64,000 nucleotides of DNA, from IMG/VR virus record IMGVR_UViG_3300008416_000001. One strand, given 5' to 3'. Below, piece after piece: positions 889-39,555 of the stretch; position 1 is the stretch's first letter, and each line of letters begins with the position of its first letter. The notes under the pieces were generated by a model, which was not told the DNA's origin, did not search any database, and saw only the letters and a program-made list of their open reading frames with translations. Both the position numbers and the translations under genes were made by a program. Source of the stretch: a virus.

Positions 889-917
889 TTGACATCACCA
901 CGCATCACTGATAGGCT
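889..917 (+). promoter_or_regulatory. sigma70-type promoter TTGACA-17-TAGGCT
   Basis: Perfect -35 at 889-894, 17-bp spacer, -10 TAGGCT at 912-917, in an intergenic gap. Confidence 0.65.
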
Positions 918-984
918 GTAAGCGTTCTCTTGGCGGGAACAAGTTTTTAACTTGTAGGTTATGCGGAACTAAAATTTAACGAAG

Positions 985-1038
985 AAGCCCCGCACTAAGT
1001 AGCCTCGTAAGTCCCGCCAAGGATTTGCGGGGCTTTTT
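985..1038 (+). terminator. Large-loop intrinsic terminator/attenuator in a 5' leader
   Basis: AAGCCCCGCA (985-994) pairs with TGCGGGGCTT (1026-1035), whose end runs into a T-tract; the loop carries a 10-nt complement to 929-938. Confidence 0.6.
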
Positions 1039-1053
1039 CCATTGGAGGTTGGC

Positions 1054-1251
1054 ATGATTAAGAATCACGAAAAGGATTACAAAGAGAACGCATGGAATGA
1101 ATACACGATGCAAGAGCTTGGTCAGTGGGTTCATTTGCTCTCAACGAGGGCTCAACACAGAGCGAACGGCGATAAAAGAGTAAAAGACCTATATGACGCT
1201 CAGAACTATCTGGACATGATGCAGCAAAGGTTGACCGAGTTGAAGACATGA
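1054..1251 (+). CDS. Hypothetical protein (65 aa)
   Basis: GGAGG at 1044-1048 points to ATG 1054 (MIKNHEKDY...), shorter than the track ORF. Confidence 0.7.
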   Translation: MIKNHEKDYKENAWNEYTMQELGQWVHLLSTRAQHRANGDKRVKDLYDAQNYLDMMQQRLTELKT

Positions 1252-1373
1252 AGGACTTGGTTGCTTGTTCGGGCGAGTGTGGTAGAAGACGACAACTCCC
1301 CAAGGGTTGGATTTGCGACGAGTGCAAAAAGAAAAAGGATCGTAATGCTCATACTTGTTTCTGGGGCGACTAA
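1248..1373 (+). CDS. Small zinc-finger-like protein (41 aa; not in ORF track)
   Basis: ATGA overlap with the upstream stop; MKDLVACSGECGRRRQLPKGWICDECKKKKDRNAHTCFWGD. Confidence 0.55.
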   Translation: MKDLVACSGECGRRRQLPKGWICDECKKKKDRNAHTCFWGD

Positions 1374-1941
1374 AACTATGGACAAAATGTCTGGTCATCC
1401 GAATCTCGGACAGTTGATAACACCTCATGACGGGAACAAGATCAGGGGTGACATGCCATGGGCTGCTGATAATGCCGCTTTCTCTAATTGGGACAGAATA
1501 AAATGGTTGTCCATGCTTCGCAGGATTTCCGGTTCTGACCCCCTTTTTGTTGTTGCTCCTGACGTTGTTGGTGACGCAATGAGTACACTCAAGCGGCTAA
1601 AGGTTACATCGCCAATGATAAGAAAACGCGGTCTAAAAGTAGCGTGCGCTCTTCAGAATGGACAAGAATGGATAGGAGTAAGACGACACTTGATTGACGC
1701 TATATTTATTGGTGGTGACACTGAGTTTAAATTAGGCCCATACGTTAGGCATTGTGTGTGTTCAGCAAAAGAGCGTGGGGAATGGGTGCATATGGGCAGA
1801 GTTAACTCATTCAAGAGACTTCAATATGCCAGAGAAATTGGGTGTGATTCTGTTGATGGTAGTGGATACAGTATGTTCCCAGACCAGAAACTTATTCCAG
1901 CGTTGAGATATTTAGAAACAGAACAATTGAAACTATTCTAA
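1345..1941 (+). CDS. Minimal TGT-fold (DpdA-like / queuine tRNA-ribosyltransferase-like) protein, 198 aa
   Basis: Ordered motifs WAADNAAF, APDVVGD, LQNG, IFIGG, VHMGRV, GCDSVDGS parallel the TGT catalytic motifs; start chosen at MLILVSG. Confidence 0.65.
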   Translation: MLILVSGATKTMDKMSGHPNLGQLITPHDGNKIRGDMPWAADNAAFSNWDRIKWLSMLRRISGSDPLFVVAPDVVGDAMSTLKRLKVTSPMIRKRGLKVACALQNGQEWIGVRRHLIDAIFIGGDTEFKLGPYVRHCVCSAKERGEWVHMGRVNSFKRLQYAREIGCDSVDGSGYSMFPDQKLIPALRYLETEQLKLF

Positions 1942-1947
1942 ACAAAA

Positions 1948-1997
1948 GTTGGAGTTCACTCGCCAGATTCTCCAACGCCGAAAGGTGGATAGCTGGC
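1948..1997 (+). ncRNA. Candidate pseudoknot RNA with an inserted GNRA hairpin
   Basis: GTTGGAG/CTCCAAC stem; CGCC-GAAA-GGTG hairpin; loop GCCAG (1962-1966) complementary to CTGGC (1993-1997); intergenic. Confidence 0.35.
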
Positions 1998-2126
1998 ATG
2001 AAAAAACAAGTGGGCAACGCTTGAGACTTTGCGACCCACAACTTGGCGACGAAATCGAATGTGTTAAATAGTGGGTTGATATGCGGAGAACAAGGGGCTT
2101 CGTGTCTCTAAAACAAGGAGAGTGAA

Positions 2127-2741: not shown

Positions 2742-3008
2742 ATGAAGAAAGTTTCAAGTATGGCAGAATTCAGCGGTGACGGAACAAAGCAAACAATAAA
2801 ACAAGCACTTGAATCTGCGCTTGAAGAGGTAGGCGAAAGAGGAGCCTTTGAACATGGAAAGAAGATACTCATACTAGCTCTTGAAGAGGGCGACAATAAA
2901 GATCTTTACAAAATCTCTTTTGTCCAAGCTGGGATGAAAATGAGCGAATGCTTAACTCTTTGTGAGGTTGCAAAGACTTTATTTCTTGACGAAATGGGTT
3001 ATATCTAA
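2742..3008 (+). CDS. Hypothetical protein
   Basis: AAGGAG/GAGG upstream of MKKVSS. Confidence 0.65.
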   Translation: MKKVSSMAEFSGDGTKQTIKQALESALEEVGERGAFEHGKKILILALEEGDNKDLYKISFVQAGMKMSECLTLCEVAKTLFLDEMGYI

Positions 3009-3023
3009 ACCGCGAGGAAAGCC

Positions 3024-3233
3024 ATGAGCCTAAAATACATAAGTGAATCATACGGAGTCCCAGCCAAGAAAGGCCAGAGAATAATCTACACTGGTCTAAA
3101 CTATCCAAGGCCGGGGGAGATAGTTGGATCTCACAACGCCTCGATAAAGGTTGTCTTTGACGATGAGCCGGAAAGAACTTACATCCATCATCCTACCTGG
3201 AACGTGGAATATGTTGAAAGTGAGGAGACATGA
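3024..3233 (+). CDS. Hypothetical phage protein
   Basis: 69 aa, GAGG RBS, operon packing. Confidence 0.7.
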   Translation: MSLKYISESYGVPAKKGQRIIYTGLNYPRPGEIVGSHNASIKVVFDDEPERTYIHHPTWNVEYVESEET

Positions 3234-3592
3234 GAGTAATTAAGTTCAGAGGGTGGGACCATGGTACTAATGCGTGGCATAATTTCAATGCAAATGACTT
3301 TAGTTTTAACCCTACACCGCCACTTGATGCATTATTCTTAACATCGCTTGACGGCCAGTGTAATCTCGAACAATTTACTGGCCTCTTAGATAAGAACGAT
3401 GTGGAGATTTACGAGGGCGATATATTGTTTTGTTCTGTAGAGAAAATGATCGGAACTGTGAAGTTCACATCTGGCTGTTTCACAACAGACTGTAGTGGCT
3501 GGGGTGATGAATGCCTCAATGGCATTGATACAGATCACATTGAGATTGTCGGCAACATCCACGAGAATCCAGAATTATTGGAGGCCACATGA
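3230..3592 (+). CDS. yopX: YopX-family protein
   Basis: IKFRGWD...QFTGLLDKNDVEIYEGDIL...EIVGNIHENPELL signature. Confidence 0.9.
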   Translation: MRVIKFRGWDHGTNAWHNFNANDFSFNPTPPLDALFLTSLDGQCNLEQFTGLLDKNDVEIYEGDILFCSVEKMIGTVKFTSGCFTTDCSGWGDECLNGIDTDHIEIVGNIHENPELLEAT

Positions 3593-3765
3593 AGAAATCA
3601 TACACTTCAATCATGAAGGACATAAAGCAGACAGACCAGATGGTAATGCTTGCCGGTTCTGACGATGTAAAGCAGACATGGGTAGATCGCAGAGAGAGTC
3701 TTGATAGTTGTTTGTCTTGCCCGGTGCTTGGCCGTGAGTGTCCACCAGGATGCAAAAGTCTATGA
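3589..3765 (+). CDS. Small Cys-containing hypothetical protein (58 aa; not in ORF track)
   Basis: ATGA overlaps at both ends (YopX stop, NinB start); C-terminal CLSCPVLGRECPPGC. Confidence 0.6.
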   Translation: MKKSYTSIMKDIKQTDQMVMLAGSDDVKQTWVDRRESLDSCLSCPVLGRECPPGCKSL

Positions 3766-4160
3766 AACACACCATCACCACACCAGAGGCATTAAGACGC
3801 GCTGTGTGCCAAATCTCAGCCTCTCAACTACCAATCACAGTTGAGACCAGGCCATACAAGGACACGCGCAGCAATGAACAGAACCGGCGCATGTGGGCTA
3901 TGCTTCGTGACGTGTCCCAACAGGTTAACTGGTACGGAAAAAAGCTGACGTCTGATAACTGGAAAGATGTATTCACGGCCTCTTTAAAAAAACAAGAAGT
4001 CGTGCCAGGAATTGACGGAGGCTTTGTTATCCTTGGCCAGTCAACTAGCAAAATGACGATAGCTGCTATGTGTGAATTGACTGATTTGATGTTCGCCTTC
4101 GGTGCTGAACATGATGTTTTGTTTTCAGATCCTTCTGACGTGATGCACAGTGAGAGATAA
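3762..4160 (+). CDS. ninB: NinB/Orf-family recombination mediator
   Basis: RSNEQNRRMWAMLRDVSQQV.WYG.KL...WKDVFTA.L...VVPGIDGGFV.LG.STSKM. Confidence 0.92.
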   Translation: MKHTITTPEALRRAVCQISASQLPITVETRPYKDTRSNEQNRRMWAMLRDVSQQVNWYGKKLTSDNWKDVFTASLKKQEVVPGIDGGFVILGQSTSKMTIAAMCELTDLMFAFGAEHDVLFSDPSDVMHSER

Positions 4161-4185
4161 AACTACCTAAAATGACATTATCAGC

Positions 4186-4213
4186 TTGACACCGCCGCCT
4201 AATGTGGCATGAT
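4186..4213 (+). promoter_or_regulatory. Possible internal promoter TTGACA-16-(TG)CATGAT
   Basis: Perfect -35 in the gap after ninB; weaker extended -10. Confidence 0.4.
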
Positions 4214-4240
4214 AGGGGAAACTTTAACAGGGAGGAAGTT

Positions 4241-4600
4241 ATGAAAAAGTATGTGACGTTTGTTAAGAGCGAGGTTGAATCACAGAAAGTTCAGGAGGCG
4301 CTATTCGGGGCTGGATTCGAATGGGGTGCAGTCCGTGGTTGTAACATTGTAGCTAACTGTGAGTTTCCATTCATTTCGCTTAACTGGTGTGACATTTCTG
4401 GCAACATTACCTGTTCCTCTGATTATGCATATCATTTCAACAGCGACGAAGACAATGTATTCTATATAAACGCAGAAGACGTCATAGCTAATCCCTTCCA
4501 ACTCGACGGAGCCAAGAAACCAGAAAAGATGATTGCGGTTTATGGTAAAGAGTATTCCGAAAGCACAATTAAGGCGGCACTTCAGGAATATGTAAAATGA
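4241..4600 (+). CDS. Hypothetical protein
   Basis: GGAGG RBS before MKKYVTF. Confidence 0.7.
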   Translation: MKKYVTFVKSEVESQKVQEALFGAGFEWGAVRGCNIVANCEFPFISLNWCDISGNITCSSDYAYHFNSDEDNVFYINAEDVIANPFQLDGAKKPEKMIAVYGKEYSESTIKAALQEYVK

Positions 4601-4788
4601 ACGCCTTCACAAAAGAACTCCGAGACAAAGGCTGGACGCTAAAAGCCTTTGCTGAATTTCTCGGCCAACCATTGCGGAACATCTCACGCATAGCCAAGAA
4701 CCCAAAGCCTATACACTGGCTGGCAATCCGCGAAGGTTTACCAGTAAAGCACCGCACATCTAACCGGGGTGGATGGGGGGAGGTATGA
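4597..4788 (+). CDS. Small HTH (Cro/XRE-like) DNA-binding protein
   Basis: LRDKGWTLKAFAEFLGQPLRNISRIAK pattern. Confidence 0.6.
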   Translation: MNAFTKELRDKGWTLKAFAEFLGQPLRNISRIAKNPKPIHWLAIREGLPVKHRTSNRGGWGEV

Positions 4789-5012
4789 GCGAATGGATTA
4801 GCGTTGAGGAAGATTCACCGAGGCCGATGCACTTCGTTGATGTTTATTTAAAATCGACAAAGAACTCAACGTATGGTGTAAGAATGACAGATGTCTTGTA
4901 TACAGGGGAGAAATTTAATCACAGAGATGCCTTCGACTTGTTTTTGTGGCATACTGGATGCCCCTACCCTCACCACCAAAGGAGTGATTATGTCTCACAA
5001 GGCGATGATTAA
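4785..5012 (+). CDS. DUF551-like protein
   Basis: MSEWISVEEDSP N-terminus; GGAGG RBS. Confidence 0.55.
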   Translation: MSEWISVEEDSPRPMHFVDVYLKSTKNSTYGVRMTDVLYTGEKFNHRDAFDLFLWHTGCPYPHHQRSDYVSQGDD

Positions 5013-5196
5013 ATCCTATCTGTTGGAAGGTCACAGAATCGAACCCATGGAGGCACTCAGCCAGTTCGGATGTTTCAGGCTCGGCGCTCGTATCCATGAG
5101 CTTAAATCGGAGATGAGCATTGAGAGTCACTTTGTCACGGTGATTAATCGGAACGGTGAAGAGTGCAGGGTTAAGCAATACTGGATGGTGTCATGA
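4990..5196 (+). CDS. Winged helix-turn-helix protein (HTH_39-like)
   Basis: IKSYLLEGHRIEPMEALSQFGCFRLGARIHELK; AAGGAG RBS. Confidence 0.7.
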   Translation: MSHKAMIKSYLLEGHRIEPMEALSQFGCFRLGARIHELKSEMSIESHFVTVINRNGEECRVKQYWMVS

Positions 5197-5549
5197 AGGT
5201 TTATCCTGTCACTCCTGTTGCTAAGCCAAGGCAAACAAGGTCTGACAAGTGGAAACAACGTCCACCAGTTCTTAAATATAGGGCTTTCGCTGACGAGGTT
5301 AGGCTGAGAGGCGTTAAACTCAATGAGGCATACTCACGCATCACCTTTGTTCTGCCGATGCCGCAGAGCTGGTCTGAGAAGAAAAAAAAGCTAATGGACG
5401 GGCAGCCGCATCAACAAGTGCCGGATCTTGATAATTTGATTAAGGCTCTCTGCGATGCAGTTCATAAACAGGACTGTCGTATATGGGATTATCATGCCTC
5501 TAAGATATGGGGGCGTAATGGTGAGATAAGGATAGGTGTACTGTTATGA
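5193..5549 (+). CDS. rusA: RusA-family Holliday junction resolvase
   Basis: PVAKPRQT...KY..F...PDLDNLIKALCDAV...D..I motifs. Confidence 0.88.
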   Translation: MKVYPVTPVAKPRQTRSDKWKQRPPVLKYRAFADEVRLRGVKLNEAYSRITFVLPMPQSWSEKKKKLMDGQPHQQVPDLDNLIKALCDAVHKQDCRIWDYHASKIWGRNGEIRIGVLL

Positions 5550-5671
5550 TTCAAATCTGGAAAAGACAAACTGGTTGTGACATGCAAACGCAGACCGAAT
5601 GCTACATAAAAATATGCGGGTGGAAAGTGCTTGTGTGGTCCGTGTATCTAAACCACTTCCCAGATGAAAAC

Positions 5672-5710
5672 AAAAAAGGCCGCTCTTGACGGAGGATATC
5701 AGGAGCGGCC
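5672..5710 (-). terminator. Intrinsic terminator at the convergence of the late (-) and early (+) arms
   Basis: GGCCGCTCTTGA (5678-5689)/TCAGGAGCGGCC (5699-5710) stem with A6 at 5672-5677 (U-tract on the minus strand). Confidence 0.7.
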
Positions 5711-5718
5711 AATAACAA

Positions 5719-6237
5719 CTATTTCTTTGCTGCGGTTATCGAATCAATTCCTTTGCCAACCTGACGTAAACCAGCATATGCCCAAGGCAGAGTAAATAGC
5801 GCGCCCAGAACCCACACATCAATTGTCTCAGCAATGAATACATAAGCAAAGGCAGCAACCAAACTGCACCAGCTTTGCGCCGGTCGTGTTCGCCTTACAA
5901 ATTTATCCTCTGCGTTATCTCCACTCTGGATAGTTTTCTGTGTCTGTTCATGTGACTTTTGAGCATCTACAAGCTCTAACTCTTTCATCGACCGGATGTG
6001 TTCGCGTATGCTGTCTTCTTCTTTAAACGATAGCTCTTTGAGCTTCAGCAACGTATCAGGGTTGTTCTGTAGGCTCTCCAAGGCTCTGACTGGATCGTCG
6101 GTACCTGTCGCGCTAGAAACAAGTGAGACACCGGCTGCTATTGCACCGGGAACATTTCCTGTTAACAGTGAACCAACCAGGGCAGCGCCTGAGCCTGCGT
6201 TGTCTTTTATCCAGTCGCCAACTTCATTCCATTTCAC
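5719..6237 (-). CDS. Holin-like protein, 3TM (GTA holin) family
   Basis: G.A.LVGSLL.G..G.AI N-terminus, coiled middle, RRTRP followed by hydrophobic segments. Confidence 0.7.
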   Translation of the reverse strand: MKWNEVGDWIKDNAGSGAALVGSLLTGNVPGAIAAGVSLVSSATGTDDPVRALESLQNNPDTLLKLKELSFKEEDSIREHIRSMKELELVDAQKSHEQTQKTIQSGDNAEDKFVRRTRPAQSWCSLVAAFAYVFIAETIDVWVLGALFTLPWAYAGLRQVGKGIDSITAAKK

Positions 6238-26913: not shown

Positions 26914-27442
26914 CGTATTGCTCCCCTGGTTTCGTTGGTTCGGTGAGGGCTTGTTGGGCGATCTTGGCAACAAATGTCGGACGCCCCGCATCCATGTGGC
27001 CATAGCCTATTTTGTCCTTAGCTATACTCTCCAAAGCAGCACGCAATCGCTGTGCTGTGGCTTGGGATTGCTTTTTGCCTTGTAAGTAATCAGAATTTTC
27101 AACCTGTAAAGATCGTATATAATCAGCTTGTTTGTCTGCCTCTTCTTCCAACTCCTTCACCTTGGCTTCGGCTTTCTCGGCGCGGAGTAAGAACTCTGTC
27201 GCTAAATTTGATTCGTCCTCAAGGTCTTTGAGTAACTCAGTTTCTCTCTGCTTCAACCTATCCACCTCTTCTTGGCTCTTGGCGAGTTCGGAAATATAAT
27301 ATTCTTCAACAGATGCGTGATAATTTTCGTCATGGCATTCTGGGCAAAGTCCGTTGATGATTGCTCCCCAGCGACCGCAGTCACATTGCCCGGTTGTTGC
27401 ACGATCCCAATCTTTGTGTACTCTTTTTGGTTTTTCCATCAC
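26897..27442 (-). CDS. Coiled-coil hypothetical protein with an N-terminal Cys cluster
   Basis: CDCG...CPEC followed by heptad repeats. Confidence 0.65.
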   Translation of the reverse strand: MMEKPKRVHKDWDRATTGQCDCGRWGAIINGLCPECHDENYHASVEEYYISELAKSQEEVDRLKQRETELLKDLEDESNLATEFLLRAEKAEAKVKELEEEADKQADYIRSLQVENSDYLQGKKQSQATAQRLRAALESIAKDKIGYGHMDAGRPTFVAKIAQQALTEPTKPGEQYDERMD

Positions 27443-27804
27443 TTCCTCCCTTTGTCGTGCTTTGCAGAAGCATCAGCGACTCCAATGGCCCATTTTAGAA
27501 ATGCGGCCATTTCGGTATTGTCTGTGTGAAAAGAAATATTAATAGGTGGTGGATTTTTCGCCGCTTCCAGCACCGCTTCAACGGATTCTGAGAGGTGGCG
27601 GGTGTTGAACGCTTTAAGATTGTCTGCCTGGAGCTCTGACAATGTGTCTCTTCCATGCTCAGACCTATCATCGAATTGGAATAACAAACCACAACTCTTG
27701 CACTCAATATTGTCGCAACACTCGCCACTCACTTTCTCACCATCAAAGTCACACCATTGCACTTGACCTTGACATATTGGACACGGCAACAATTTCTCAC
27801 TCAT
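27439..27804 (-). CDS. Lar-like (restriction alleviation) zinc-ribbon protein
   Basis: MSEKLLPCPICQG...IECKSCG...AFNTR pattern. Confidence 0.6.
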   Translation of the reverse strand: MSEKLLPCPICQGQVQWCDFDGEKVSGECCDNIECKSCGLLFQFDDRSEHGRDTLSELQADNLKAFNTRHLSESVEAVLEAAKNPPPINISFHTDNTEMAAFLKWAIGVADASAKHDKGRK

Positions 27805-28256
27805 AAGCCTATTCTCCTCGCCAGCCTCTGCACTACACCAATAGTTATACTGTGCCTCTTGCATGGTGCATCCAAGTCACAGGGTTCACCGATGCAAGCC
27901 TTGTTTGTATGCTTCATTGCTAAATTTACTTTTTGTTGTAGGTTCATCTCGTGGTTGCGAGGATTGAACGGGAAAGTTTTTTTCCATCGCTCCATAAACA
28001 ACATCATCGCAAAATTAGCTAAATCAACTAAGTCTTTGTCATCAACTTCCTCCTTGGCCGCTATCTTTGCTGCTTTCATCAACAACCGTTCTTTAACGTT
28101 GAAGTTTTGAGGTGTCTGCCAACCAGTAAAACCTTTGCTGAACTTGCAGTGCATCCTCTTTCCCATCCACTCAGAAAATATATCAATTGAATGGTTTATT
28201 TCTTCGCGTTCTTCACTACCTGAGACAGCATCCGGCAACAACTCTTTCTCACTCAT
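27801..28256 (-). CDS. Hypothetical protein with a KG..GW / DLVDLANFAMML helical domain
   Basis: AAGGAG RBS; motif recurrent in phage early regions. Confidence 0.6.
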   Translation of the reverse strand: MSEKELLPDAVSGSEEREEINHSIDIFSEWMGKRMHCKFSKGFTGWQTPQNFNVKERLLMKAAKIAAKEEVDDKDLVDLANFAMMLFMERWKKTFPFNPRNHEMNLQQKVNLAMKHTNKACIGEPCDLDAPCKRHSITIGVVQRLARRIGL

Positions 28257-31464: not shown

Positions 31465-32148
31465 TTAGCCATTATCAATTTCCTTAATTGCTTGCATTAT
31501 TGCAGCGGCTACTTTGGGGTCAATTGAATTGCCTAGAGATTTAAGTCTGTGTGTCCTATTGGGTAGTTCATCAGATACTCGAACAACTCTGGAGAAATCC
31601 TCTGCTCCCCTATAATCGTTTTGTAATTCCTGCAGCTCTTCCACTTTTGCATCGATGGCGCTTTGAAGTTTGCCATCGTTGTAGGTGTGTGCAATAACCC
31701 ACCAGCGATTCCTCTGATGGTCATACCCAAGCTGAGAAGAACCAATACACTGTATAAACGCATTGTATCCGAGTGCTTCCAATTCTCTCTTAACGCCTTC
31801 AACAGCTTTTCTTTGGACATTTTCGCCAATGACATATCGAGGCATGACATTTCGTATAATTCTGACAAAATCAGAAGAAAGGCATGGTGCATTGTTTCTG
31901 CCTCTTGCCGCTGTACTATGTGCTTGGCAGGGATATCCACCAGTGACGATGTATACATGTGCGATGTCGCTTCCATCAAGTTGGGTAATGTCATAGTATA
32001 ACTCCGATTCTGGCCAATGCTTCATAAGAATTTTTTGTGGGAACTCTTCTATCTCGCAAAAGATATGCTCAACATTCTCTTTCCCCCACACCCAATCAGC
32101 CGCTAGCGAAAAGCCTCCTATGCCACTGAATAAATCAAGATGTTTCAT
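31465..32148 (-). CDS. DNA (cytosine-5) methyltransferase
   Basis: Motif I DLFSGIGG; IV GGYPCQ; VI ENV; VIII Q.RNRW; X LGNSI. Confidence 0.92.
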   Translation of the reverse strand: MKHLDLFSGIGGFSLAADWVWGKENVEHIFCEIEEFPQKILMKHWPESELYYDITQLDGSDIAHVYIVTGGYPCQAHSTAARGRNNAPCLSSDFVRIIRNVMPRYVIGENVQRKAVEGVKRELEALGYNAFIQCIGSSQLGYDHQRNRWWVIAHTYNDGKLQSAIDAKVEELQELQNDYRGAEDFSRVVRVSDELPNRTHRLKSLGNSIDPKVAAAIMQAIKEIDNG

Positions 32149-32166
32149 AATCCACCAAAAGAAAAA

Positions 32167-32229
32167 GCTGCTTAGGAGATTGACCCTGCTATGGAGCGTG
32201 TGAAAACTCCGGTCAATCACCTAAACAGC
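32167..32229 (-). promoter_or_regulatory. Long leader hairpin/attenuator upstream of the methyltransferase-replication operon
   Basis: 19-nt arms 32167-32185 and 32211-32229 (2 mismatches), inner GGAG/CTCC hairpin, followed by a U-rich tract on the minus strand. Confidence 0.55.
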
Positions 32230-36547: not shown

Positions 36548-37670
36548 TTCCTGTCGTTGCCAACCAAACCCAAGACTCCACTGGCGCTACAGGATGTTTG
36601 CCTCAAAACGAGTATGACATCCATTGCCATGCTATTCCTGGCCCCGAGTACAAATTGAATTATCTCGCCTCTTCTTGCAATATCCGTATTGAAGACAAGA
36701 CATGCACAGAGTACGAGTGCAAGCGATATGCCGGCGAGAGGAAAGTCAGCAAGTCTAAGATAACGCCACGCAAAAGACCAAAAGGTAAGGTTAAGCGGAC
36801 ATGTGTCGGCTGTGGCGAGTTAAGCTTTATCAAGGGGCGTGGTCTGTGTGGTAAGTGCTACAAAAGAAACGAGTACCGCGGCACCTTGGATAATTACAAG
36901 ACAGCCCAGGAGATTCACGAATTGCGGTATCAAGAAGACTCACACGATCACCGACGAGAAAGGCCGTACCGCTGAAATCTCAGACGGGTTGCATTCAGAG
37001 CTTTTTTAACAACTACGGAGGAAATTATGAAAGACTGGATCTACATTTTGTTTGGCGTCGCTATGATGGTTGGCTCTTTCGGTGGATGGATAACCCATAT
37101 CTTCGCATGCTTATCAACTGAGGCATGGGGGTTTCTGATCGCTGGTGCCTTGTTTTTCCCAATCGGCATTATTCATGGAATTGGCATCTGGTTCGGGGCT
37201 TGGTGATTATTTATTTGACATCACCACGCATCACTGATAGGCTGTAAGCGTTCTCTTGGCGGGAACAAGTTTTTAACTTGTAGGTTATGCGGAACTAAAA
37301 TTTAACGAAGAAGCCCCGCACTAAGTAGCCTCGTAAGTCCCGCCAAGGATTTGCGGGGCTTTTTCCATTGGAGGTTGGCATGATTAAGAATCACGAAAAG
37401 GATTACAAAGAGAACGCATGGAATGAATACACGATGCAAGAGCTTGGTCAGTGGGTTCATTTGCTCTCAACGAGGGCTCAACACAGAGCGAACGGCGATA
37501 AAAGAGTAAAAGACCTATATGACGCTCAGAACTATCTGGACATGATGCAGCAAAGGTTGACCGAGTTGAAGACATGAAGGACTTGGTTGCTTGTTCGGGC
37601 GAGTGTGGTAGAAGACGACAACTCCCCAAGGGTTGGATTTGCGACGAGTGCAAAAAGAAAAAGGATCGTA

Positions 37671-38267
37671 ATGCTCATACTTGTTTCTGGGGCGACTAAA
37701 ACTATGGACAAAATGTCTGGTCATCCGAATCTCGGACAGTTGATAACACCTCATGACGGGAACAAGATCAGGGGTGACATGCCATGGGCTGCTGATAATG
37801 CCGCTTTCTCTAATTGGGACAGAATAAAATGGTTGTCCATGCTTCGCAGGATTTCCGGTTCTGACCCCCTTTTTGTTGTTGCTCCTGACGTTGTTGGTGA
37901 CGCAATGAGTACACTCAAGCGGCTAAAGGTTACATCGCCAATGATAAGAAAACGCGGTCTAAAAGTAGCGTGCGCTCTTCAGAATGGACAAGAATGGATA
38001 GGAGTAAGACGACACTTGATTGACGCTATATTTATTGGTGGTGACACTGAGTTTAAATTAGGCCCATACGTTAGGCATTGTGTGTGTTCAGCAAAAGAGC
38101 GTGGGGAATGGGTGCATATGGGCAGAGTTAACTCATTCAAGAGACTTCAATATGCCAGAGAAATTGGGTGTGATTCTGTTGATGGTAGTGGATACAGTAT
38201 GTTCCCAGACCAGAAACTTATTCCAGCGTTGAGATATTTAGAAACAGAACAATTGAAACTATTCTAA
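37671..38267 (+). CDS. TGT-fold/DpdA-like protein (copy 2)
   Basis: Identical to 1345..1941. Confidence 0.65.
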   Translation: MLILVSGATKTMDKMSGHPNLGQLITPHDGNKIRGDMPWAADNAAFSNWDRIKWLSMLRRISGSDPLFVVAPDVVGDAMSTLKRLKVTSPMIRKRGLKVACALQNGQEWIGVRRHLIDAIFIGGDTEFKLGPYVRHCVCSAKERGEWVHMGRVNSFKRLQYAREIGCDSVDGSGYSMFPDQKLIPALRYLETEQLKLF

Positions 38268-39555
38268 ACAAAAGTTGGAGTTCACTCGCCAGATTCTCCA
38301 ACGCCGAAAGGTGGATAGCTGGCATGAAAAAACAAGTGGGCAACGCTTGAGACTTTGCGACCCACAACTTGGCGACGAAATCGAATGTGTTAAATAGTGG
38401 GTTGATATGCGGAGAACAAGGGGCTTCGTGTCTCTAAAACAAGGAGAGTGAAATGGAAGGATATAGAAAAGAGATAGAGATTACTTCAACAGGGATGGTT
38501 ATCGCTAGAGTTATAGGCCCTGATGGACTTAAAAAGGGATATAAGTTTTTCGATCAATTTATAAGCACGCCAGCTAATGTTGAAAGAAGTTGCAAGAAGG
38601 CGCATGCTTGGAGTGACGAATATATGAAAATATGTGAGCGGCAAGAATGTCTCTAAAATATCTTCAGGACTCACCAAAGGGCTAGAGGTTAAGACTAAAC
38701 ACATAGGCCGAGACACACAGACAGAAAAGGAGACAGATATGTTTATTAAATTTGTACATTATCCAAACACAAGCAAAGGCACCATGGTAGAGCGAGTTAT
38801 TGAGTGCCGTGAGTTTCACCAGGGCTATTCCGAGAAAGGACGTGAGGCGACCTTTATGATCGACAGCCCAACAAGAAACTACGAGGTTGTCGTGCAGTGT
38901 GTAGAAACCTCAGTTTACATTATGAGCAACGAAGGCAAAACAATCGATAGCTACAAATGGCGTGGCGTTGATGGTATAATTACGCGCATGTAACTGAATT
39001 GTCTCGGCCTATTTTAAGTTACACACGGTACGTTGCTATCCCCAATGCTCACATAAGGAGAAAGAGGATGAAGAAAGTTTCAAGTATGGCAGAATTCAGC
39101 GGTGACGGAACAAAGCAAACAATAAAACAAGCACTTGAATCTGCGCTTGAAGAGGTAGGCGAAAGAGGAGCCTTTGAACATGGAAAGAAGATACTCATAC
39201 TAGCTCTTGAAGAGGGCGACAATAAAGATCTTTACAAAATCTCTTTTGTCCAAGCTGGGATGAAAATGAGCGAATGCTTAACTCTTTGTGAGGTTGCAAA
39301 GACTTTATTTCTTGACGAAATGGGTTATATCTAAACCGCGAGGAAAGCCATGAGCCTAAAATACATAAGTGAATCATACGGAGTCCCAGCCAAGAAAGGC
39401 CAGAGAATAATCTACACTGGTCTAAACTATCCAAGGCCGGGGGAGATAGTTGGATCTCACAACGCCTCGATAAAGGTTGTCTTTGACGATGAGCCGGAAA
39501 GAACTTACATCCATCATCCTACCTGGAACGTGGAATATGTTGAAAGTGAGGAGAC

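Follow-up and report, generated by a model that had tools for sequence, protein, structure and literature searches.

The closest described counterparts of the control region considered here are antisense attenuators of the P4 CI type, among which phage P1 c4 is counted. In P4 CI/seqA/seqC and in Gifsy-1 IsrK, the long transcript is the target of a short RNA that comes from the leader (PMC4825925). For the enzyme encoded downstream, the closest described proteins are the singleton DpdA proteins of phages, whose carriers can be unmodified or barely modified: there is no modification in Orion, and only 0.02% of G is modified in 7-11 (PMC6884629). Other proteins that bear on the locus are members of the DUF6610 family, which is DpdA4 (10.1101/2023.04.13.536721), the queuosine-precursor transporter YhhQ (QPTR, PF02592; PMC11130926), and Cap10, a TGT-fold protein of type IV CBASS that binds a deazaguanylated protein (10.1101/2025.04.06.647259).

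The locus and its setting

The window, which is the whole 64,000-nt stretch of DNA that was analysed, is made up of a tailed-phage genome of 36,326 bp and an exact tandem repeat of it (1-36326 versus 36327-64000). This duplication is an assembly concatemer and, because the repeat is exact, the second copy of the candidate cassette at 37215-38436 is not independent. The region of interest (889-2126) lies inside a rightward series of small early genes, downstream of a gene for an Erf/Rad52-like recombinase and upstream of the YopX, NinB and RusA genes. Its features are as follows.

889..917, + strand: sigma70-type promoter with a consensus -35 at 889-894, a 17-nt spacer and a weak -10 at 912-917 (3/6)
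924..940, + strand: leader 5' hairpin, whose loop and 3' arm (929-938) complement 1012-1021; putative antiterminator strand or antisense target
986..994, + strand: alternative 5' arm for the terminator 3' strand, pairing with 1026-1034; compensatory change in homologue L321
1001..1039, + strand: intrinsic terminator hairpin (1001-1034, 14 pairs) and T-tract; its loop is the complement of that of the 5' hairpin; kept in homologues L088 and L321
1054..1251, + strand: 65-aa helical-hairpin protein with a strong SD; a real phage family (244 clusters by profile)
1248..1373, + strand: 41-aa Cys4 zinc-ribbon-like ORF (CxxxC..CxxC), an orphan with no clear SD
1345..1941, + strand: minimal TGT/DpdA-like transglycosylase of 198 aa, phrog_15826 family, assigned by profile, fold and invariant residues
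1942..2126, + strand: structured intergenic stretch of 185 nt with a possible pseudoknot at 1948-1998 and no terminator

There are no tRNA genes and no Rfam matches anywhere in the 36,326-bp genome, and no integrase was seen among the 60 ORFs scanned. The same ORFs include no member of the Pfam families for folE, queD, queE, queC or yhhQ, and tblastn of phage QueC, QueD, QueE, FolE and YhhQ against the genome gave no match. Judged by the presence of folE/queD/queE/queC or of yhhQ, the genome does not carry a complete phage 7-deazaguanine DNA modification cluster. The same phage encodes a Lar-like restriction-alleviation protein (27439-27864, - strand; this ORF was so labelled on visual inspection), as well as a C5 DNA methyltransferase (31465-32220, - strand).

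We consider it probable that this region is a mosaic early operon under the control of an attenuator, and that its enzyme exchanges bases of the phage DNA for preQ0/preQ1 made by the host, as a defence against restriction. A portable unit of promoter and attenuator leader would control whichever gene comes next, and in this genome the genes behind it would be a pair of small accessory ORFs followed by a DpdA-like transglycosylase that stands alone. This enzyme would remove guanine from replicating phage DNA and insert a 7-deazaguanine (preQ0/preQ1) drawn from the host pool, and the base exchange would confer partial protection from restriction.

Leader and downstream RNA

The leader is known from three homologues (in the window, L088 and L321) and one analogue (L096), all of them from short metagenomic contigs. 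In L088, a promoter and leader like those of the window are placed straight before an enzyme gene whose product is 89% identical. The leader of L321 (JGI Ga0209976_10122753; leader region 580-800; 82 bits, E 5e-15) was found by a pattern scan of metagenomes, and it heads not the transglycosylase but an ORF (~660-1331) of phrog_12600, which by its motifs looks like a minimal C5 methyltransferase-like protein. This unannotated family is also found in a microvirus and in small Xanthomonas phage genomes. The L096 leader, associated with a 79%-identical enzyme, has the same design with a 16-bp helix and an unrelated sequence.

Transcription is predicted to start at ~924. The -10 element, matching at three of six positions, is too weak for a simple promoter scan and was missed there. 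Nevertheless, the claim made from the sequence alone that the genes have a promoter of their own is borne out by the promoter-like site at 889-917, wherein the -35 and the 17-nt spacing are kept in L088 and L321 despite a diverged spacer. The L096 promoter likewise has the -35 and the spacing, embedded in a different sequence.

The segments 929-938 and 1012-1021 are perfect complements (shuffle p=0.0007) centred on the loops of the 5' hairpin and of the terminator, and the leader as a whole has a folding z of -1.96. The helix between the 5' segment and the terminator loop comprises 10 Watson-Crick pairs in the window, 11 in L088 and 14 in L096, compared with at most 9 for generic viral terminators (n=107). 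One antiterminated and two terminated folds of the window leader are computed at -43.1, -43.0 and -40.5 kcal/mol, all within ~3 kcal/mol, and the transcript prefix that precedes the terminator 3' arm folds as the antiterminator in all three homologues. The leader is thus predicted to fold as a near-isoenergetic terminator/antiterminator switch. The pattern of variation is consistent with this model. L088 has one additional base in each loop, and these two bases pair with each other (a compensatory insertion), while in L321 a loop-loop base pair is replaced by a different pair (a compensatory substitution). The bases that vary and covary between the homologous leaders are exactly the two loops; covariation is also present in L321 for the stem formed by 986-994 and 1026-1034. 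The + strand has five such 7-nt words, among them a repeat at 2042 that was considered as a candidate downstream complement.

There is no Rfam match to suggest a known class. At the window leader, Rfam gives only sub-threshold His/Thr leader matches, which arise from the terminator, and no C4-type match; similarly, the C4-type models do not match the L088 and L096 leaders. A scan of 22 related loci yielded no riboswitch or other ncRNA, apart from an unrelated epsC match. For preQ1 riboswitches of classes I-III, there is neither an Rfam match nor a set of conserved aptamer residues at the leader, in the genome or in these 22 loci. The sequence-only reading had suggested that the RNAs couple expression to the availability of a precursor. 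This idea finds no backing in the riboswitch searches. Since the leader also heads an unrelated gene in L321, sensing of the enzyme's precursor does not appear to be its role. Judged by its conservation, the leader is a genuine, conserved and portable regulatory element rather than a sensor dedicated to this enzyme, and this attenuator-type RNA, which has no Rfam match, is apparently undescribed.

Among 112 enzyme loci examined, the design of promoter plus switch is restricted to the close clade. Exact-pattern scans of IMG/VR returned chance matches or nothing, a leader model found no match within a sample of 151 genomes from the phylum of G001, and a BLAST search against phage GenBank gave no match. 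The contig L087, whose enzyme is 80% identical, carries, upstream of the enzyme, an HNH gene that has a promoter and a terminator to itself (5348-6000). The leader of this HNH gene was considered as a further example and rejected, since its helix of 6 Watson-Crick pairs is at the level of chance. Of a leader of the L096 type, L087 retains just the half with the terminator, which suggests that an insertion replaced the 5' half.

How might such a leader operate? During transcription, 929-938 would pair with 1012-1021 before the 3' arm of the terminator is made, such that read-through would be the default. Occupation of the 5' segment would then let the terminator form. The simplest occupant would be the finished short leader RNA, acting loop-to-loop in trans as in P4 CI/seqA, and the outcome would be a burst of expression on entry followed by a later shut-off. 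We tentatively entertain a broader proposal, wherein the leader is the first member of a family, so far undescribed, of antisense attenuators that regulate themselves and are located before phage DNA-modification enzymes (a transglycosylase and a methyltransferase-like ORF). Such leaders would permit a default burst and a shut-off by leader RNA, with loops that give phage-specific insulation, and the enzyme would represent a YhhQ-linked minimal DpdA subfamily.

Of the other explanations, the one that survives best is a constitutive, leaky attenuator, wherein folding kinetics set a low level of expression with no trigger in trans, and the enzyme is perhaps inactive in this host. The near-equal fold energies would allow partial read-through without assistance, no antisense promoter was found on the opposite strand between 900 and 1500, and there is a precedent for inactive singleton DpdA proteins (PMC6884629). 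However, variation and covariation fall exactly in the two loops, as expected of kissing loops that bear specificity, and a weak terminator needs no such design. We therefore regard the leaky attenuator as a rather doubtful explanation.

The RNA-like stretch at the other end of the region is less compelling. The reading of the locus as flanked by two structured noncoding segments stands for the leader, which is conserved and switch-like, and is only weakly supported for the downstream RNA. Nucleotides 1942-2126 have a folding z of -2.5 (2 of 200 shuffles are as good), and they also contain a 40-codon ORF with a TTG start codon and no SD. No intrinsic terminator that would close the unit and no Rfam match were found in this stretch. 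In L088, both complementary 5-mers and the hairpin between them are kept while the remaining sequence is different (post hoc shuffle p 0.002), and the element is absent 3' of the enzyme gene in L087, L095 and L096. The pair of pseudoknot words occurs in 5 of 109 unrelated loci and is hence not diagnostic. Two specific assignments of the fold were rejected, each with a blank Rfam result: an HDV-like ribozyme, for which the P3/L3 element is missing, and a preQ1-II riboswitch, for which the aptamer consensus is missing. Perhaps the stretch is another regulatory RNA, specific to this clade and serving the genes that follow, and we consider it a weak candidate.

The predicted transglycosylase and its genomic context

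The enzyme matches phrog_15826 with an E of 1e-46. There are 2,241 homologues (>2,000 clusters at 90% identity), with 360 matches in IMG/VR and 98 in genome bins, the nearest of the latter being from Desulfuromonadales/Geobacterales (57-59% identity). Phage records that match with at least 80% coverage number 23, and cultured phages are among the carriers. SEA-PHAGES members of the family, which are 40-44% identical to the window enzyme, are labelled 'DpdA-like tRNA-guanine transglycosylase'. A gene caller places the start within the zinc ORF to give a 220-aa product; this version was rejected, as the homologues begin at 1345.

The AF2 model of the enzyme is a (beta/alpha)8 TIM barrel (pLDDT 93). 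Foldseek against the PDB ranks TGT first (E 1e-4), and viral proteins annotated as TGT or DpdA head the list of BFVD matches. By VIA-align, TGT, arcTGT, Cap10 and DpdA are all in the top 18 with Z of 12.4-13.1, although Z alone is not specific here, in that unrelated barrels tie and pyruvate kinase is equally high. The alignment with bacterial TGT covers 191 residues (Z 13.1, rmsd 3.5). Residues D42, D73, Q104, G124 and D171 show no variation across all 81 family sequences, and they supply the set expected of a TGT: two catalytic Asp and a base-binding Asp, Gln and Gly. D42, D73 and the IGG motif align with the queuine tRNA-ribosyltransferase gp87 of Sonali, in a weak match (E 0.009), and D171 is assigned by the C-terminal DS-D-S motif. 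The proposal that the ORF encodes a TGT-like enzyme is thus upheld by its barrel and by its invariant TGT-type residues.

The subfamily is less easily named. By Atlas features the nearest Pfam cluster is DUF6610 (score 0.91), and the PF20314 HMM for this DpdA4 family, run with E values up to 1, matches none of the 81 members. The enzyme sequence likewise had no match in Pfam or in the PDB. On the evidence of sequence and model, we place the enzyme in the TGT/DpdA superfamily, outside every HMM-defined subfamily tested. We found no biochemical or functional test of any family member in the literature.

The neighbours of the enzyme were counted for 109 clusters at 80% identity. Vut_1/YhhQ, which transports preQ0/preQ1, is the commonest recurrent neighbour, found within about 4 kb in 39 of the 109, followed by DNA methyltransferases (19/109) and Que synthesis genes (7/109). 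These recurrent associations tie the family to the salvage of 7-deazaguanines. The enzyme and Vut_1/YhhQ form a two-gene pair across actinobacterial, bacillota and marine phages (e.g. L073 3415-3984, L016, L004 and L001), which looks like a real conserved module. In L002 (Sonali), L005 (Vibrio phage R29Z) and L059, the minimal enzyme is found alongside Que genes and a DpdA of the canonical kind, which implies that the two proteins are not redundant. Members of the enzyme family are also present in many soil Solirubrobacterales MAGs (L108-L145), where they share a similar location that is possibly chromosomal rather than prophage.

These associations also bear on whether DNA is the target at all. 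The enzyme might instead act on host tRNA, either by salvage with queuine or preQ1 imported by YhhQ or by removal of Q, or it might bind a deazaguanylated protein in the manner of Cap10, for example as a decoy. The family has a strong tie to the QPTR/YhhQ transporter and not to synthesis genes, Cap10 ranks sixth by structure, and members also occur in bacterial genome assemblies. However, the zinc-binding CxCxxC motif of tRNA TGTs is present in 0 of 81 members, which at ~200 aa are about half the length of tRNA TGTs (about 370 aa or more). Moreover, the neighbours are DNA replication and methylation genes, and the nearest annotated relatives are phage DNA enzymes. A target other than DNA thus seems unlikely to us, and exchange of bases in phage DNA is the activity we favour.

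Small genes and comparison with known systems

The three ORFs overlap as first noted from the sequence: 1054-1251 and 1248-1373 share 4 nt, and 1248-1373 and 1345-1941 share 29 nt. The last ten codons of the 41-aa ORF are an alternative frame of the start of the enzyme gene. There is no detectable homologue of this ORF, only sub-threshold matches to zinc-finger Pfam models, and it is absent beside the 87%- and 89%-identical enzymes. It is probably a recent insert or a remnant.

The 65-aa protein has 12 close homologues. Its family has no Pfam match, and fold searches return generic helical hairpins with no significant structural match. Weak leads suggest that it may be DUF3310/T7 gp1.7-like: the Atlas score for DUF3310 is 0.91, although only 10% of members carry the label, and 5 of 24 family members match the PHROG 'nucleotide kinase' weakly (E 0.06). 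A homologue adjoins the enzyme gene in 2 of 20 other loci, namely the GCA_044344285 contig, where the 65-aa gene precedes the 87%-identical enzyme, and L182, whose enzyme is 32% identical. The latter contig also presents a tight operon (2983-5230) of the 65-aa homologue, the distant enzyme homologue and then a C5 methyltransferase. Two independent adjacencies exceed the chance expectation for two rare genes, yet they indicate a loose functional neighbourhood and not an obligate subunit. The 65-aa product would be an accessory of nucleotide metabolism often located near DNA-modification genes, and the 41-aa ORF would be a passenger.

The sequence-only reading had joined these parts into a self-contained, moron-like module, and had held that the linkage would fall if homologues of the enzyme gene occurred in unrelated neighbourhoods without these partners. 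They do occur there, and even enzymes with 80-89% identity have different neighbours: abutting genes on both sides on an 82% contig, a different upstream gene in L095 (80%), and in L087 the HNH gene upstream with a replication gene 9 nt downstream. On visual inspection, the partial ORF at 3-194 of L095 looks like the C-terminal end of a protein of the nucleoside deoxyribosyltransferase kind, with no Pfam or PHROG match. The small proteins are not fixed partners of the enzyme, because the 65-aa gene is missing from 172 of 174 enzyme loci and none of them has the zinc ORF. Of the proposed link between the 65-aa protein and the enzyme, what stands is the adjacency in two other contigs, one with an enzyme of 32% identity; the link is only a loose one. 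A co-inherited cassette, wherein the microproteins serve the enzyme as subunits or as targeting factors, with its expression coupled by the RNAs to precursor availability, could draw on the overlapping ORFs behind one promoter, on those two adjacencies and on the leader and similar downstream fold retained in L088, but it is very improbable, as the enzyme is missing from 18 of the 20 other loci of the 65-aa gene, the zinc ORF is without a detected homologue, no riboswitch match or closing terminator was found, and the leader is joined directly to the enzyme in L088 and to an unrelated ORF in L321. The parts are not inherited together and do not constitute a fixed new multi-part system; small genes and downstream RNA come and go among relatives. 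This negative result indicates that overlapping small ORFs in the early regions of phages are no evidence of a system.

Should an assay be positive, the enzyme would found a minimal subfamily of DpdA, the fifth, and offer a compact means of exchanging DNA bases. As a natural terminator/antiterminator switch whose loops can be exchanged, the leader would be new, and it would bear on the timing of anti-restriction modification by phages and on orthogonal RNA regulators.

Several described systems share features with this locus. Like the phage singleton DpdA proteins (PMC6884629; DpdA1-4, 10.1101/2023.04.13.536721) and the SEA-PHAGES DpdA-like proteins of cluster P mycobacteriophages and of Sonali (gp81), the window enzyme is a TGT-type barrel with catalytic aspartates, encoded in a genome with no precursor pathway. 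It differs from known DpdA proteins in being only 198 aa and in matching no Pfam model, and, whereas some singleton DpdA phages carry YhhQ, the window genome does not. The 65-aa protein shares with DUF3310/T7 gp1.7 a helical hairpin and the basic R..R/K-DL..A.NYL motif, and its N-terminal motif differs. Phage morons similarly have their own promoter within an operon of small genes; unlike morons, this unit has a terminator that precedes its genes, none that closes it, and a composition like the rest of the genome.

In overall design the leader resembles P4 CI/seqA/seqC and Gifsy-1 IsrK: a promoter, a structured untranslated leader with internal complementary segments, a premature terminator, and genes expressed by read-through. 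There is no sequence or Rfam similarity to these RNAs, and the window leader precedes DNA-modification-like genes and not replication or antirepressor genes. The P4 CI-type RNA acts in trans; by analogy the window leader, known here from its sequence, may do the same. The locus represents a mosaic operon with an orphan DpdA-like gene of a kind already known, preceded by an attenuator-type leader that is apparently undescribed.
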